32,000 nucleotides of DNA from an uncultured archaeon (lineage in GTDB: Archaea > Asgardarchaeota > Thorarchaeia > Thorarchaeales > Thorarchaeaceae), in contig CAZYLT010000002.1 of NCBI GenBank assembly GCA_964648855.1, forward strand, positions 235,014 through 267,013, read 5' to 3'. The translations under genes and the position numbers were made by a program. Within the stretch, counting starts at the first letter, position 1. The number at the start of each line of letters is the position of its first letter. This document shows, piece by piece, positions 15,937 through 22,014 of the stretch. The notes beneath the pieces were generated by a model. The model was not told where the DNA came from and made no database searches. It saw nothing but the letters and a program-made list of their open reading frames with translations.

Positions 15937-16181
15937 TCAAACTCGCTCTCCAGACCAAGTATTTTCCTGAGCTCTAGATCTGTTACCTCTTCAGGCTTTA
16001 ACTCAACAATCTTATCAAAAGTTAGTTCCCTTCTCTTGACCTTGTGTCTGCTTCCTATTTCCGAATAAATCTTCTCTCGAACATGTTCTTCTTTGTCCGC
16101 CATCAGCTCCACATCGAAACTGAATGTACGTTTCTTCTTTCTAAATTCGCCAGTTGCTCTCCAGATTTTGTCACTCATCAT
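15933..16181 (-). CDS. rpl18a: 50S ribosomal protein L18Ae/LX (eL20)
   Basis: EKIYSEIGSRHKVKR motif; located between eIF6 and pfdA. Confidence 0.92.
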   Translation of the reverse strand: MMSDKIWRATGEFRKKKRTFSFDVELMADKEEHVREKIYSEIGSRHKVKRRELTFDKIVELKPEEVTDLELRKILGLESEFE

Positions 16182-16197
16182 AAACCACTCAATTATC

Positions 16198-16863
16198 TTA
16201 TACCAATCCTAGAACCTGTGAGATATGGGCCATTTCCACACCAGTTGTCTGTGAACCAGTAATCATGCCATCCGAATTGGCAATCACACCAAGGTGTGTA
16301 TATGGGCTTCCTCTGTTGACAGTCCCAACTTCCACATGTACTTTTAACAGCTCTGATAGTTCATCCATCTCTTGTGTTGTCGCTAAGGGATGGACCACTG
16401 CACCTCTATTAGTGACGATGGCGTTAGAACCAACAATAGGCAATCTTGCTATCGTTCCTGGGATTACCTCTACATCCAAGATATCTTCCATCTTTTGTCT
16501 TGCGTTCTTATCGAAGTCAGGATGACACATTGCTCCGCTGTCATTCGCCAATACGATGTTTCCAAGTGCTGTCATGTTGTTGTCTATCCAATCTATTGGC
16601 ACCTCGGACATTTTTCTAAGAGACTCAAGTTCCCCGTTTCTTATTGTATAGGGCAGTAGAATACCGTTTGAATTTGCCACTGTAACAAGTCCCACCGCAT
16701 CCATAGTCGCCACGGTTGACTGGATAAAGGGTAGATTGAATGCTCTCTCTATTATATTGAGGTCCTTTTCCGACACATTCGGGCTGACAAACACGAAACG
16801 GTCTGTCGCAACTCCGTAGGCTCCGACATTGGAATCGCCCTCAAAGTTCGTACGGGCGATCAT
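16198..16863 (-). CDS. eif6: Translation initiation factor 6 (aIF6)
   Basis: ANSNG, LGNIVLAND, GTVNRGS and TTGVE motifs. Confidence 0.96.
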   Translation of the reverse strand: MIARTNFEGDSNVGAYGVATDRFVFVSPNVSEKDLNIIERAFNLPFIQSTVATMDAVGLVTVANSNGILLPYTIRNGELESLRKMSEVPIDWIDNNMTALGNIVLANDSGAMCHPDFDKNARQKMEDILDVEVIPGTIARLPIVGSNAIVTNRGAVVHPLATTQEMDELSELLKVHVEVGTVNRGSPYTHLGVIANSDGMITGSQTTGVEMAHISQVLGLV

Positions 16864-16869
16864 GGTTTA

Positions 16870-17337
16870 CTAGCCCTCCGCCAGGTATACGCGCACGAGG
16901 TCTTCGTCATTCTTTGTTGCTCGTATCCTGATTCTTCGAGGAGGTTTCTGCATACCTCGAGACCAGATTCGTTCGTTGACTTCTGGCTGAATGACTAGAA
17001 ATTCAGGCTTCATGTGCCGTTTCACAAACTTCTGGAGCTCTCTCACTGCTCGTTTGGCTCTGCGAAGTCTATTTCCAGTCCAATAGACCTTCCTTAATGG
17101 CACTGTATAGATGCGCTCATCGATGATTTCTTCTTCAGGAAGCGCTTCTTCTACGAGTTCTTCTTCCTCAAGCTCCTCTTCTTCAACAAAATCTTCAAGG
17201 TCTCCTAACTCATCGATATCCTCGAGGCCAGGCTCCTCTACTACTTCGAGCTCCGGTTCTTCCTCAAGCTCCTCGAGTTCTTCTAACTCGGGTTCCTCCT
17301 CGGAATTCTCTTCTACTTGTTCCTTATCGAGCGGCAT
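16870..17337 (-). CDS. rpl31e: 50S ribosomal protein L31e with ~70-aa acidic N-terminal extension
   Basis: ERIYTVPLR...RAKRA...VNERIWSRG..KPP core. Confidence 0.95.
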   Translation of the reverse strand: MPLDKEQVEENSEEEPELEELEELEEEPELEVVEEPGLEDIDELGDLEDFVEEEELEEEELVEEALPEEEIIDERIYTVPLRKVYWTGNRLRRAKRAVRELQKFVKRHMKPEFLVIQPEVNERIWSRGMQKPPRRIRIRATKNDEDLVRVYLAEG

Positions 17338-17368
17338 CTTTCTCTACACCTAAACCATTTCTATCGTG

Positions 17369-17443
17369 CGGCTTCAGTTTGGTCTTTCGCCATTTGCGCT
17401 GCCTATAAATCCATCTTGCCATCCTCTTTGTCTTTAAAATCAC
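17369..17443 (-). pseudogene. Degenerate rpl39e 3' fragment (copy next to rpl31e)
   Basis: Translates VILKTKRMARWIYRQRKWRKTKLKP versus intact [25 protein letters not shown]: 14/25 identical, ungapped. Stop lost and 5' half not recognisable. Confidence 0.8.
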
Positions 17444-17954
17444 GGCATGGAGGAAGACGGCATTCCACATACAACGCCTTTAATCATGCTGGCTCGCAAT
17501 GATTACGATAAAAGCGTTGTCCTATGATAATTACTCGAATTCTGTGTGGCTTTCTCTTCTGAAGCTTGAAACACAGTCACAAGTTACCACAATATTGGAA
17601 CTTGCACAGCTTGACCGTTATGACATTAAGCGAAAATTCGGGATCTATGCTAATATCGTGCTGCCAATAGAGATACAAAAATCAAGGCATAACCCAGCCA
17701 GAAACATCGTTTGTCCCACCGACCATTTTCTGCCCTATGGAATCAAAACGTACATTCTTCCACAATATGAACTGGGCATAAACCTCGGTTGTAGTGATGA
17801 AAACTTGATTTCACATCAGATTACAGATCTAAATTAAACAGAATGAGAGAATGCCACAATGCAAACTTTCCGTATCATTACTTGTTCTTTCTTCGTAATT
17901 TCATTAGAAAAACTAAAAGCGATGGATTGAATCATACTAAATGGGTGTTAGTAA

Positions 17955-19027
17955 TTGGGTGATGTCAGGAAGGCAAAAATCGTATTTTGCCTCTCTCTGC
18001 TCCTCATTTTTGGTGGATTGGGCTTAATATGGTCATCTCGTTTCTACTTCTCTTGGCAAATGGAGAGTGGGTCTGACTGGCTTCCATATGAAACAAAGAC
18101 AGCTAACGTTTCCTTAAACTCAGCAATCCCCTCTGCAAATTATAGCATAAAGGAAGTGATGCTTAATGTTACCCATTTCAACGTTTCAGAGGGCCGGGTT
18201 TCTCTTCTGATTTATGATGAGAATGACTCGCTTCTTCTCAATCGGTCTGAAATCTCAGGCAACCTAACGGTTGGATATACAAGTCGTGAGGAAATTCCGG
18301 ACTCAAGCGCTGATCCAAAAAACTTCACCCTTCTCTTTCTTTGGGAGGGAACAAATACCACAGCAAGCTTTGCATACAAAACTTACAGGCTTATATCCTG
18401 GGATGGAGTGCCTTATGTGGTCACTAATCCTGGATATTACGAGTTTATCTTCATTGGCAGTGTCTTGATTCTATTAGGGACTATCCTCTTTGTTCGGGCT
18501 TTTTGGAGTTTGAGGGGGCTGGAGGGGAAAGAAGCAACTGGGTCAGAAATCCATAAAGTCAAGGAAGGAAACAATGATGCAGAAAGCTTACAGAACAGAA
18601 ACGGTTTTTCCCTCGGGCGACGGACATTTTCATCCCCACTAATCATGTTGGGATTTCTGCAGATTGCTCGTGCAGCACTGAGCTTTCTCTTACAGTACCG
18701 AATCTTCATGTGGGTCGCCCACACAGCTATCCCGGCGGGGAAGTATTCGCACCATTTTATCCTCTGGCCATCAACCCCCTCTATTTGGCTGTCGGTATCA
18801 TCGATACTTTGTTTATGAGCTTAGTCTTCTTGCTTGAAAGTCACAGGTTTGCACGCTATTTGTTGACTTTACTGGATGTTCTATTTGTCTTTTCGCCAAT
18901 TTGGTTTTGGATAAAACTTGGTTTTGGCTATGCGCTGTTTTTCGAACCCTCCAGCATTGGTATCAGTATTCTATCGCTAGCTCACCTTGGCATCCTATTC
19001 TCGGAGAAACTCAAGCCTGCAGCGTAG
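17955..19027 (+). pseudogene. Membrane protein with external beta-rich domain, apparently frameshifted near 18710-18740 (ORFs 17955..18818 and 18710..19027)
   Basis: N-terminal TM, an external domain with many N-x-S/T sequons, then TMs. The hydrophobic pattern continues in the overlapping second frame. Confidence 0.55.
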
Positions 19028-19120
19028 AGGGTAATAGATTTGCGATTTTGCAGGTCTTGGAAAAAGAAACATTATGTGAAATGCATGGGCCCATCATCGT
19101 AATTAGTGTCGTTCAGTTGG

Positions 19121-19180
19121 CTGTCACCAGTTTCGCCGTTTTGGATTCCACCAGAACTCGCCGTTAGTCTTTACGAATAC
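19121..19180 (-). pseudogene. Degenerate rpl39e 3' fragment (middle copy)
   Basis: Translates VFVKTNGEFWWNPKRRNW*Q versus intact [20 protein letters not shown]: 12/20 identical. TGA at the Arg position, indels afterwards. Confidence 0.8.
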
Positions 19181-19311
19181 TTGAAAGGTTCTCAGCGAAG
19201 ACAATACTGACTTTGTGACAGATACAACTCAATTTCATCCATAAATATCTATTCAGAAAACTCGCTAAGAGAAGAACCCTCCGCCTTGCTGAATTGTCAC
19301 TATGTATATGC

Positions 19312-19722
19312 CTACTCTACTATGATTAGCAGATTTTCAGCATCAATACCCGTCCCTTCTTCTATAGCTTTGACCAAATTATCAAGAGCTTTAGTAATCC
19401 CTTCTCCTTCAACATCTACTATCTCTCCATTTGATTTTGCTAGGTTCACATGTGGTGTGGGGTTGAGTTCGTATCTTGTTTCCCCTTTGAATGAGAAGCT
19501 ACGAACTGTGCCCAGCTCCTCGAAGGTGCTCAAATTCTTGAGGATTGTCGACTGGCTTACGCTTTGAAGGTTTTTCCTGACTTCCTCGTATATCTCAGAA
19601 AACGATGGATGGTACCCCCGTTTACTCTCAAGAACCTTCAGCAATTCAAGTCGCTGCGGTGTGCGCCGTAGTCTGTTTTTTCTTAGGAGTTCCATGGCAA
19701 GCACTCTCTGGGCGATGCCCAT
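19312..19722 (-). CDS. Fur/PerR-family transcriptional repressor
   Basis: LRRTPQRLELL, HPSFSEIY, VSQSTILKNL winged helix and RYELNPTPH. Start ATG 19722, divergent from dps. Confidence 0.9.
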   Translation of the reverse strand: MGIAQRVLAMELLRKNRLRRTPQRLELLKVLESKRGYHPSFSEIYEEVRKNLQSVSQSTILKNLSTFEELGTVRSFSFKGETRYELNPTPHVNLAKSNGEIVDVEGEGITKALDNLVKAIEEGTGIDAENLLIIVE

Positions 19723-19750
19723 AATAAGTTTATCCGAGGTAAATGTTAAA

Positions 19751-19765
19751 TAGAAGTAAGTACTA
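19751..19765. promoter_or_regulatory. Candidate Fur/PerR operator (imperfect 7-1-7 inverted repeat)
   Basis: TAGAAGT-A-AGTACTA (5/7 arm match) in the 67-bp AT-rich divergent spacer. Confidence 0.3.
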
Positions 19766-19789
19766 AGTAATATTAAGGTGATATAACTA

Positions 19790-20344
19790 ATGGCAAGAGT
19801 AGCAAGAGAAATGGTTGAGAAAGCTGGAGTTGATGTTGATAAGTTGCTTGAACTCCTAGTCAAGAATGCAGCCGCAGAGTTGACAACATATTACTACTAC
19901 ACGATTCTTCGTGCAAATCTTATTGGTCTTGAAGGCGAGGGAATCAAGGAGATAGCAGAGGCAGCTCGTATTGAGGATAGAAACCACTTTGAGGCGTTAG
20001 TCCCACGAATCTACGAGCTTGGCGGAGGGCTACCAGAAGACATGGTTGACTTCCATAACATCTCAGCGTGCCCCCCTGCTAAAATACCGGAAGATCCTAC
20101 AGATGTTCAGGCCATCCTCAAAGTGCTAGTAGGCGCCGAGAGGTGTGCAGTCAGAGGATACACTGAGATATGCAACATGACAGCAGGAAAGGACCACAGA
20201 ACCTATCTCCTGTCACAGGCTATTCTCAATGAAGAGACTGAACATGAATCTTGGTTCTCAGAGTTTCTGGGAGAGGGCCCCTCAGGACACTTCATGCGGA
20301 AAGGAGAAACTTCTCCCTTCGTTCGAAAATTCCTCCCCGAATAG
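19790..20344 (+). CDS. dps: Dps-like (DpsL/thioferritin) DNA-protection protein
   Basis: AAAELTTYYYYT, EDRNHFE, Cys pair SACPP/AERCA, EETEHE and EGPSGHF; AGGTGA SD. Confidence 0.95.
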   Translation: MARVAREMVEKAGVDVDKLLELLVKNAAAELTTYYYYTILRANLIGLEGEGIKEIAEAARIEDRNHFEALVPRIYELGGGLPEDMVDFHNISACPPAKIPEDPTDVQAILKVLVGAERCAVRGYTEICNMTAGKDHRTYLLSQAILNEETEHESWFSEFLGEGPSGHFMRKGETSPFVRKFLPE

Positions 20345-20371
20345 CATGAAAAACAAAAGGTAGGCCGACCA

Positions 20372-20404
20372 GAAAAGGGAGCTAGTAGCTCTCTTTCTTT
20401 TTTT
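20372..20404 (+). terminator. Hairpin plus T-tract terminator after dps
   Basis: GAAAAGGGAGCT-AGT-AGCTCTCTTTC followed by a T run. Confidence 0.65.
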
Positions 20405-20582
20405 CTACCGTTTTGTCAATCTGACTCATTATCGACTCTGTGCAAAACCGGTCTAATATGTAGATTTGTTAGAACATATGTTCTCAGTATCTTTGCCTTT
20501 AAATCCTAAAAGGAAATTGTAGAGGACTTCTTACTAAAGAAATCCTACTGAGCAAAAATCGATAGAGACATAACTCACGAAA

Positions 20583-20738
20583 CTATGGTTTGAGTTTGGT
20601 CTGCCGCCAGTTCCGTTGTTTTGGATTTCGACGGACCTTCCCCTTGGTCTTGACAACTACCCAGGTAGGTACGCTTGAGTTGCTCTTCATAGCCTTAGCC
20701 ATTCGAAGTTTCTTACCGAGTTTCTTGTTTCTTGCCAT
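20583..20738 (-). CDS. rpl39e: 50S ribosomal protein L39e (below the ORF-track cutoff)
   Basis: Hand translation [51 protein letters not shown], 51 aa; AGGTGA SD. Confidence 0.97.
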
Positions 20739-20758
20739 TGTGAGTCACCTGTAGTAGT

Positions 20759-21103
20759 TTATCTGAATCGTACCTTTGTTTCGCGTTCTTTGCCCTGAAG
20801 TTGCTTCAGGAGCGACTTGAGCTGTTCATCTGATATTCTGTTTCTTAATCTTCCGCTGCCGGCTAGTTGGATGAGTTGCATCTCAATCTGTTCTGCTAGC
20901 TGTGGTTTTACTAGTCTGATGTTCGTGAGTCTTGAGCGAGCCTCAGGAGTGAGGATTTGACGTAAGATAGCCTCCTTCTGTGCTTCGGCTTCCTTCTGAC
21001 GCTCCTCAGCCATCTCCTCTTGAGCCGCTTGCTGTTGAAGTTGAGCAAGCTTTTTCTTGCGGATGTCTTCAAGCTCATCTTCGTCGCTCAATTTGTTCAC
21101 CAC
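20759..21103 (-). CDS. PDCD5-like dsDNA-binding protein
   Basis: ELEDIRKKKL and LRQILTPEARSRL..IRLVKP; conserved position between rps19e and rpl39e. Confidence 0.94.
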   Translation of the reverse strand: MVNKLSDEDELEDIRKKKLAQLQQQAAQEEMAEERQKEAEAQKEAILRQILTPEARSRLTNIRLVKPQLAEQIEMQLIQLAGSGRLRNRISDEQLKSLLKQLQGKERETKVRFR

Positions 21104-21114
21104 ATTCTGGTTGA

Positions 21115-21570
21115 TTACGCGTATTTCTCAAGTTCTGGGATTGCCTTTTCAAGTTCTTGCTTCAATGAAGCTGACACCTTGTCGATATAGGATCTGCCTA
21201 CGGGGGTCATTACTCGCCCTCTCTTTTCGTCCTTCTCGACGAAGCCCGCACGTTCCAGTTGTTGCAGTGCGGTCCTGATAATGTTTCCACTACCTTTCTG
21301 AAACCTGTTCGGTTTTGTTCCGCGTCTCTTGCGCCCGCCATAGGCAATTCTAAGTTTCTCAGTACCGATGGGACCGCGCATGTAGACCTTTCTCATGATG
21401 CTGGCACAACGAGTGTACCACCAGTCAGGATCATCAGGAGCTCGTTCCCTGTGGGACCCGGTCTTAGAGTATTCTGCCCACTCTGGGGGTTCAATCTCCT
21501 TTCTATTCTTTAGGTCCTGTGCGAGACGTCGTATCAAGACGTTTGCTGGGATGTCGTACGCTGTAGGCAT
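21115..21570 (-). CDS. rps19e: 30S ribosomal protein S19e
   Basis: KTGSHRERAP, DWWYTRCAS and GSGNIIRTALQQLE. Confidence 0.97.
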   Translation of the reverse strand: MPTAYDIPANVLIRRLAQDLKNRKEIEPPEWAEYSKTGSHRERAPDDPDWWYTRCASIMRKVYMRGPIGTEKLRIAYGGRKRRGTKPNRFQKGSGNIIRTALQQLERAGFVEKDEKRGRVMTPVGRSYIDKVSASLKQELEKAIPELEKYA

Positions 21571-21659
21571 GTGTTGGTCACCGTACTCGTTGAGGTGGAC
21601 ATATCGTACACAGACTCGGCAGATTGCCTACCTCAGAAGGCTGTCAAAATCGGCAATAG

Positions 21660-21680
21660 AGCGCTTAAAAGATTGTCGTT
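21660..21680 (-). promoter_or_regulatory. TATA-like promoter upstream of rps19e
   Basis: CGACAATC-TTTTAAG about 95 nt upstream of the start codon. Confidence 0.4.
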
Positions 21681-21700
21681 AGAGCTTGGCGTTCTTTGTA

Positions 21701-21979
21701 CTATCGACGAAGCTTGTATAGCACTCCAGTATTTCCTCTGATTCCAGCGAGCTCTGCGCCAGTTTCTTTGCAGAGGGTTTCGAACATATCCTCTTTGGAA
21801 TCGCGGTCTGCACCTGTGCTTCTGAGGAGTCGGACCTTGATATACTCATGATTCTTCAATAGGCGTTTAGCCTCTTCGACTGTACCCTCCGAGATGCCAT
21901 TTTTCCCTATCTGCATCATGGTAGGGTCTTGCCAGACTATGGCAATACGTGTTTCATCTGGGTCCGATTTTCCACTCAT
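21701..21979 (-). CDS. YhbY/CRM-domain RNA-binding protein
   Basis: QIGKNG, HEYIKVRLL and GIRGNT..LYK. Confidence 0.9.
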   Translation of the reverse strand: MSGKSDPDETRIAIVWQDPTMMQIGKNGISEGTVEEAKRLLKNHEYIKVRLLRSTGADRDSKEDMFETLCKETGAELAGIRGNTGVLYKLRR

Positions 21980-22014
21980 TACGAATCAAGCTACTCAGCT
22001 TTTGGATACGCTAA

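Follow-up and report, generated by a model that had tools for sequence, protein, structure and literature searches.

What could leave three copies of the end of one ribosomal protein gene, one working and two decayed, strung along a single archaeal operon with unrelated genes between them? The question arises from a stretch of 32,000 nucleotides (nt), hereafter the window (GenBank contig CAZYLT010000002.1, positions 235,014 to 267,013), of an uncultured Thorarchaeaceae archaeon whose genome (G000; 3.1 Mb, 62 contigs, 94.6% complete) encodes an L39e protein with its closest relatives in Candidatus Thorarchaeota. On the minus strand the operon reads rps19e, pdcd5, rpl39e, 3.2 kb of other DNA, rpl31e, eif6, rpl18a, pfdA and ftsY. 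The feature is real. For gene-end-replacing insertion in Asgard archaea, rpl39e is a new target, and the arrangement is a new variant. Replacement of the gene end by incoming DNA is shown at sister loci; in the window it is strongly implied, and at least two insertions, each bringing an rpl39e 3′ half, very probably took place there. Below, G001 denotes a congener of G000, other G numbers further genomes, L numbers loci or contigs, and X numbers sequencing runs; P0001–P0004 are orphan proteins at rpl39e islands, and P0011 is a LAGLIDADG-family protein that shares their leader. The site itself consists of the following parts:

20759–21103, minus strand: gene for a PDCD5-like protein that binds double-stranded DNA (PF01984, E = 3e-32), the conserved upstream neighbour, present as a single copy in the locus
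20583–20738, minus strand: intact rpl39e, 51 amino acids (PF00832, E = 1e-19)
19107–19180, minus strand: rpl39e 3′ remnant 1, which spans codons 27 to about 51 and is free of gaps as far as 19121, with 1-nt deletions thereafter
17369–17443, minus strand: rpl39e 3′ remnant 2, codons 27–51, found by profile, tblastn and nhmmer, with 4 differences in 75 nt from the G001 copy
16870–17337, minus strand: rpl31e (PF01198), the usual downstream neighbour, which adjoins rpl39e in empty-site relatives

A first-pass annotation of the window had described an intact rpl39e followed by two co-oriented, decayed 3′ copies, and this was confirmed by tblastn, nhmmer and a profile built from 89 Thorarchaeota-type rpl39e genes, scored against a 1.5-Mb scan of the genome plus strand as background. 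The remnants are the top two additional rpl39e matches genome-wide (tblastn E of 6.5e-4 for remnant 1 and 0.021 for remnant 2), and nhmmer over G000 gave the same ranking (E of 0.0024 and 0.17). No position in the scan reached the remnant scores over codons 27–51, and for codons 27–37 alone the fraction of positions that equalled or exceeded the score was 9e-6 for remnant 1 and 4e-5 for remnant 2, so that their significance against background holds. Remnant 1 (19121–19180) is 72% identical to the intact gene over codons 27–46 and remnant 2 is 64% identical over codons 27–51; the remnants are 57% alike. When the copies were aligned in search of a shared 5′ breakpoint, the optimal start proved identical for both, at nt 79, the first of codon 27. 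Upstream of either remnant, codons 1–26 reach only background scores (50th–65th percentile with the 89-gene profile), P24-T25-W26 is absent (P24 and W26 are invariant in 89/89 genes), and the locus holds no additional PDCD5 copy. The remnants are thus partial copies, not products of a duplication of the full gene or of PDCD5.

The annotation had also held that both remnants keep the same C-terminal part, which is correct for the shared start and too generous for the far end. Remnant 1 carries an in-frame TGA at codon 45, R-to-W changes and 1-nt deletions after codon 46, and therefore lacks an intact TKLKP end; in remnant 2 the stop was destroyed by a 5-nt insertion. The idea that remnant 2 is an expressed variant protein (open reading frame, ORF, 17324–17470) was rejected, as the invariant W44 and the stop are altered in G001. 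Logan contigs of runs X1 and X3, both perhaps source samples, cover 16000–22000 in one piece with zero differences.

Which tail is foreign can be read at sister loci. Over its first 105 nt the working gene of L177 differs from that of the empty-site locus L045 at a single position (104 matches); divergence sets in from nt 114–117 on. The L142 remnant matches an L045-type host from nt 113 on, the following 20 nt are identical to L045 (20/20), and the remnant continues into the host rpl31e leader. In L035 the remnant is identical to host relatives at 43 of 45 nt, the working tail at only 34–36 of 51. In these loci the working tail is foreign and the displaced remnant is the host tail, a switch which bears out the earlier proposal that insertion supplies a fresh rpl39e 3′ end and displaces the old one. 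The crossover falls at codons 38/39, with 4 nt of overlap or fewer (nt 113–116 in L035, L142 and L177). Breakpoints are fixed per group, at codons 38–41 in L035, L142 and the G022/G049 pair and at codon 27, twice, in the window, where codon 27 represents a second breakpoint within rpl39e. By analogy with the sister loci, the intact window gene from codon 27 on would be the tail brought by the latest insertion; its 3′ side is occupied by foreign DNA in place of the rpl31e ribosome-binding site. Remnant 2, still attached to the rpl31e start region, would be the original host tail, a polarity that we infer from position (remnant 2 leads into rpl31e) because there is no empty-site congener. As a separate observation, position 6 of the intact window L39e is K, against P in 81 of 89 relatives.

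Incoming tails would be unnecessary if the 3′ half of rpl39e had been duplicated in tandem within the locus, with neutral decay and unrelated insertions coming later. Codon-position bias was tried as a discriminator and rejected: with 6/1/10 and 7/5/15 differences at the three codon positions, duplication and foreign tails are not separable for the window copies, and the intact tail and remnant 2 have in common the rare K32 (5/89 genes). Duplication nonetheless appears very improbable, as it sits poorly with a working tail that is foreign and a remnant that is the host's at sister loci, with two remnants that begin at the same nucleotide and lack upstream sequence, and with different cargo between the copies.

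In the majority of Thorarchaeota rpl31e lies directly 3′ of rpl39e, in line with the adjacency that the first-pass annotation took as the archaeal norm. Among 89 distinct alleles (five filter-missed alleles included), 83 are empty and 6 filled. An insert with a displaced tail is present in 5/86 family genomes (G000, G001, G022, G049 and G065), and further occupied loci come from metagenome contigs (L142, L177, L181 and one JGI contig), of which L181 and the JGI contig were excluded from the frequency because they were retrieved via the orphan protein. Cargo is unlike from one occupied locus to another, variable across the five genomes and the contigs rather than fixed and identical. Because inserts differ among relatives and tails are foreign in the fresh cases, rpl39e is a recurrent insertion site. 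In L084 the layout is tail, 340 nt, remnant and then more cargo, and a 17-nt motif lies 60–120 nt before the remnant in L035, L084, L111 and L142, with no exact match elsewhere across the 86 genomes. No published account of rpl39e as an insertion site was found, in literature coverage that largely excluded subscription journals.

Several interruptions of other kinds were seen at this gene. Weak extra PF00832 matches in other Asgard families lie on other contigs, except for a split gene in G036 and G103. The rpl39e of G036, from another Asgard family (L217:about 1550-1605, G036:C1:242795-242996), contains a stop-containing insert of ~50 nt after W26-I27, and that of G103 is split in the same way. 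By eye the G036 insert resembles a canonical bulge-helix-bulge (BHB), and its excision would restore W-I-V-V-K; judged from these features, the insert in both genomes is probably an mRNA intron, and it falls at the codon of the window breakpoint. In one Heimdallarchaeota genome (L102:4370-12300) an 8-kb insert without a tail remnant lies between rpl39e and rpl31e, with ORFs that by eye look FkbH-like, LAGLIDADG-like and TnpB-like. A match of viral contig L168 to the rpl39e tail pattern was discarded as chance, because it lies in a different reading frame of a phage gene rich in GC.

The cargo between the window copies is as originally claimed, a dpsL/fur block and membrane-protein ORFs, as judged by Pfam matches and ORF positions:

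19790–20344, plus strand: cargo gene for a ferritin-like DpsL protein (PF00210, E = 1e-20), at the same site in G001
19312–19695, minus strand: cargo gene for a Fur/PerR-family regulator (PF01475, E = 2e-19), divergent from dpsL, 69% amino acid identity with the G001 copy
18710–19027, plus strand: 105-amino-acid membrane ORF, cargo, without a Pfam family and with one weak paralog in G000
17955–18818, plus strand: 287-amino-acid membrane-anchored ORF, cargo, whose first ~190 amino acids form a patchy Thorarchaeota family
17531–19308, no strand assigned: variable block of a 128-nt arm, remnant 1 and the membrane-protein ORFs, absent in G001 and in part of X4
17444–17530, minus strand: 87-nt arm that precedes remnant 2 and is conserved in G001

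Another 18 family genomes have matches to dpsL and/or fur at loci unrelated to this one, and relatives of the 287-amino-acid ORF occur in 16/85 other family genomes, G001 not among them; pieces of both cargo blocks are present in run X5, from a separate study. The 87-nt arm differs from its G001 counterpart at 4 of 87 nt, against 25–30% at four-fold sites in most neighbouring core genes. It is possibly an element end or a replacement promoter for rpl31e-eif6-rpl18a-pfdA-ftsY; a sigma-70 promoter scan, whose model does not include archaeal promoters, gave chance-level results.

The strictly serial insertion order put forward in the first-pass annotation is not borne out by the congener or run X4. 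The G001 order is dpsL-fur, 140 unrelated nt, the same 87-nt arm and remnant 2, without remnant 1 or the membrane block. Divergence between G000 and G001 at four-fold sites is 0.32 in dpsL, 0.11–0.30 in core genes and 0.6 in fur. In X4, a contig of depth 13.5 joins 17530 to 19309 (block depth 17.9/16.1, flank depth 30.3), and its right junction is the same as in G001. A second rpl39e allele in X4, with 13 differences in 160 nt and a depth of 13, is a separate observation whose linkage to the block-less variant is not established. Thus dpsL-fur and remnant 2 are common to both genomes and the middle block (17531–19308) is variable; because this block is polymorphic and its ends lie off the remnants, the array is no simple serial stack. 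Either the block was lost from a three-tail ancestor by spreading replacement, or it was imported as a piece of another island. The sole loss variant seen ends at 17530/19309, away from the remnants, and excised forms might be missed because contigs drop rare variants.

Clues to what drives the insertions come from fresh rpl39e inserts, which end in an orphan gene (P0001–P0004, up to 1,233 amino acids) that is convergent on rpl39e and, in each full copy seen at this site, stops no more than about 15 nt from the new rpl39e stop. The first 68 amino acids of P0002 are 53% identical to P0011 (E = 8e-12), forming a shared N-terminal leader; P0011 has two LAGLIDADG motifs, and its family is annotated as LAGLIDADG homing endonuclease (PF14528). 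The ORF upstream of P0002 matches a HerA/VirB4-like ATPase of rpl2 elements (57%; PF01935). This ATPase is also found upstream of a LAGLIDADG-motif gene beside rpl2 and upstream of an HNH-like gene, and a second fragment of it lies in L142. The rpl39e elements of other genera are thereby linked as a family with endonuclease-bearing elements. A P0002 subfamily, 25% identical, precedes a replacement rpoA′ 5′ end in an element with 91-nt inverted repeats inside, the first 44 host codons remaining after rpoB. At rpl2 sites the first host codons are apparently left behind and a new start is supplied (by eye, ~4 codons). Among 400 Asgard genomes searched, the P0002 domain was found only in the window's own family. 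Pfam, PHROG, PDB-sequence and Atlas searches gave no match to P0002, and no relatives were found in viral contigs. Searches with two half models (pLDDT 67 and 60) returned no Foldseek match at E<=0.001 and best VIA Z scores of 3.4 and 7.7 for helical parts, which imply neither a new fold nor the absence of a known one. A conserved D...DxxSK pattern, predicted to lie on a beta-hairpin, is the sole indication of a nuclease.

Further observations concern the wider surroundings of these genes. The P0002 domain also occurs within Thorarchaeota proteins of up to ~10,000 amino acids (L198:2-15076, G094:C25, G095:C93, G042:C436), and a giant protein with this domain in G023 has a signal-peptide-like start. 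Free-standing LAGLIDADG-type genes are present in Thorarchaeota (L272:758-5831, L275:5495-7735, L273:7897-9747, L276-L279), one group before rpl2 and another, with 53 homologs, between mazG and sec61beta; L279 also holds a displaced 5′ piece of the serine hydroxymethyltransferase gene. In rpoA′ alleles beside the P0002-related element, a hairpin insert of 30–31 nt with an initial stop follows GYPID (L195:7970-8045, L196:4160-4235, L199:5925-6000), and 55 matched alleles lack it. The hairpin has a BHB-like fold, canonical cutting of which would leave the frame unrestored; the insert may represent an intron, or RpoA′ may be split by it.

We favor endonuclease cut-and-repair with a carried gene tail as the driver, at a probability of roughly 50%. 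That the incoming elements brought rpl39e 3′ halves of their own is shown at sister loci and strongly implied in the window. In the favored route, a site-specific endonuclease of the element would cut uninterrupted rpl39e, and repair would copy in the element-bearing DNA, joining the host 5′ half in frame to the carried tail and shifting the previous tail downstream to decay. L39e would remain intact because the host 5′ half fuses in frame to the carried tail, and the recoded tail and split site would shield the new allele from cutting. The proposed family plan is a membrane protein, a HerA/VirB4-like ATPase whose module would move element DNA, and a target-specific terminal gene with the shared leader: LAGLIDADG-type at rpl2 and sec61beta, HNH-like once, and the orphan of ~1,230 amino acids at rpl39e and rpoA′. 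The window elements would have lost their terminal genes, leaving cargo and scars, and the present island content would shift through homologous replacement between conserved flanks. The endonuclease route is favored over an integrase because the orphan gene shares leader and ATPase with LAGLIDADG/HNH-type genes. L177/L142 and L035 display the homing-type feature of a carried, recoded tail fused in frame with the host tail displaced, as would the window, and the second X4 rpl39e allele is what allele replacement would yield. The tie of the window to such elements is by inference because the window retains scars and cargo alone.

Several points weigh against cut-and-repair by an endonuclease. 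First, the window breakpoint at codon 27 differs from codons 38–41 in P0002 elements, and the window encodes no nuclease, ATPase or P0002 homolog. No homologs of P0002, the leader or element-type LAGLIDADG genes were found in G000, and three other PF14528 matches in that genome all lie on other contigs, without link to the rpl39e site. Second, P0002 has no recognised nuclease domain, and one leader placed before differing C-terminal bodies, downstream of an ATPase, could also suit secreted proteins or polymorphic toxins carried as cargo; if the leader were a secretion signal on toxin-like cargo, the main support for homing would be removed. Third, the rpl2 remnant amounts to about 4 codons read by eye, and the LAGLIDADG sites checked showed no displaced portion of sec61beta. 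Finally, homing alone leaves the origin of the first carried-tail allele unexplained, and a fixed breakpoint with a very short overlap fits a serine integrase equally well.

That last point leads to an alternative in which rpl39e acted as the attachment site (attB) for two successive integrase-borne elements, since decayed to cis-mobilizable remnants with attachment (att) sequences and no integrase. A duplicated target gene end, a restored gene and a fixed crossover point are all integrative-element features, and they are present here. Two remnants only 57% alike that share a start nucleotide accord with this model, as do the overlap of at most 4 nt at codons 38/39, which suits a serine recombinase, the conserved element-end motif at rpl39e, the inverted repeats of the rpoA′ element, and the precedent of ribosomal protein gene 3′ ends as sites, with decayed accretion, in streptococci (PMC5704250). 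The first-pass annotation saw no integrase in the window, which is upheld, and supposed that a recombinase had acted in trans or been lost. Beyond the window, PF00589 and PF00239 have zero matches in G000 (94.6% complete) and in G001, no recombinase is found among the ORFs of the inserts L035 (fully spanned), L078, L111 and L142, and the related elements favor an endonuclease-and-repair route. Likewise, G000 has no PF00589 match that would represent an integron-type IntI adjoining the array, and the separators in this array are rpl39e tails. Excision from remnant to remnant would not produce the block-less variant, and the orphan protein matches no solved recombinase, in models of moderate confidence, although it may have a recombinase fold that was not recognised. 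Integrase accretion is a real possibility that we consider less likely than the endonuclease route. As an aside, tyrosine recombinases (PF00589), XerA included, were wholly unfound in G000, G001 and G077.

The pattern is not peculiar to rpl39e. G000 contains four rps12 tail relics, which begin at different codons (about 63–124) with cargo in between, and two EF-1alpha tail relics that are 97–100% identical at the amino acid level over the last 30 residues:

G000:C2:16705-36271 and 40767-45560: rps12 and EF-1alpha tail relics

The scattered rps12 start codons are a further point against an integrase. The genome-wide tail census is a lower bound because it missed rpl39e itself; gene-tail scars without an integrase appear common in Thorarchaeota. 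Weaker candidates lie behind a TFB-like gene and an ornithine carbamoyltransferase-like gene. In addition, rpoA′′ of G000 is interrupted after TQMTLRT (G000:C2:9018-15745, L271), where an orphan ORF of 1,418 amino acids separates the 5′ part of the host gene from a replacement for it and a stop-containing insert of ~30 nt is also present; the start of this ORF resembles the shared leader by eye only, and the leader profile did not detect it.

Relics at many housekeeping genes, such as rps12 and EF-1alpha, could also reflect an enzyme-free, homology-anchored capture, in which DNA from related archaea would recombine at conserved rpl39e on one side and be joined illegitimately on the other, so that old tails stay in place. 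Cargo that is ordinary Thorarchaeota accessory DNA, the presence in X4 of both a block-replaced haplotype and a second, divergent rpl39e allele, and a window without an enzyme gene are all in its favor. Against these stand the fixed breakpoints within each group and the single orphan gene family found next to the new tail in every fresh case; moreover, a normal donor would bring rpl31e downstream, and rpl31e is never cargo. We regard such capture as improbable, more so than integrase accretion.

Known systems share parts of this arrangement. In Escherichia coli, e14 and phage 21 supply a divergent 3′ segment to the essential gene icd and leave icdC as a pseudogene fragment; each is a lone prophage that has an integrase and undergoes excision, without a cassette stack. 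Closer in form are fungal mitochondrial endonuclease insertions that carry a C-terminus, in Allomyces macrogynus atp6, Ophiostoma novo-ulmi rps3 and Phlebia radiata atp6/cox2 (PMC4019555). As here, insertion is within an essential gene, a divergent tail is fused in frame, the old tail is displaced, tails are repeated and no integrase is involved, and rps3 is likewise a ribosomal protein gene. The present case differs in its archaeal chromosome, kilobases of accessory cargo and a DNA-transfer-like ATPase in sister elements, as well as in an rpl39e protein that is no recognised endonuclease and a window without a nuclease.

Streptococcal integrative and mobilizable or integrative and conjugative elements integrate at the 3′ end of rplL, rpmE, rpmG or rpsI (PMC5704250), and accretion of ICESt1-type cis-mobilizable elements is described by Pavlovic et al. 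(2004), as cited in PMC5704250. Common to both systems are a restored ribosomal gene end and tandem decayed units without an integrase. The streptococcal elements use tyrosine integrases and near-identical short att repeats, whereas the rpl39e islands have a recoded tail of 33–75 nt, no integrase found in any island and a variable block that is not repeat-bounded. Among Asgard elements, the passages seen of the respective papers describe aloposons and HeimM2 (PMC8813620) and integrated elements of Atabeyarchaeia (PMC11529989). These too are site-specific islands, a homing endonuclease has been proposed for HeimM2 (PMC8813620), and aloposons encode giant proteins, much as the P0002 domain lies within Thorarchaeota proteins of ~10,000 amino acids. 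Their targets, in those passages, are tRNA/rRNA genes or short att motifs, and the Atabeyarchaeia elements have tyrosine integrases; a ribosomal protein gene as target is unmentioned in the passages of PMC8813620 and PMC11529989.

Tentatively, and with less confidence than we place in the endonuclease route itself, we hypothesize a class of undescribed, integrase-free Thorarchaeota elements in which a membrane/ATPase transfer module would be combined with exchangeable target-specific endonucleases (LAGLIDADG, HNH-like and the orphan family of ~1,230 amino acids), homing into essential genes (rpl39e, rpoA′, rpoA′′ and rpl2), supplying gene ends and building arrays. The window alone offers old, enzyme-less scars and ordinary cargo, and its value lies in the link to this undescribed element family. 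The fresh rpl39e elements tie tail scars to a module of an ATPase and a terminal gene whose sister versions are homing endonucleases, and the orphan protein of 1,230 amino acids is a candidate for a new site-specific nuclease or recombinase. For the organisms themselves, the finding means that an essential Asgard ribosomal operon has been a repeated landing site for accessory genes.

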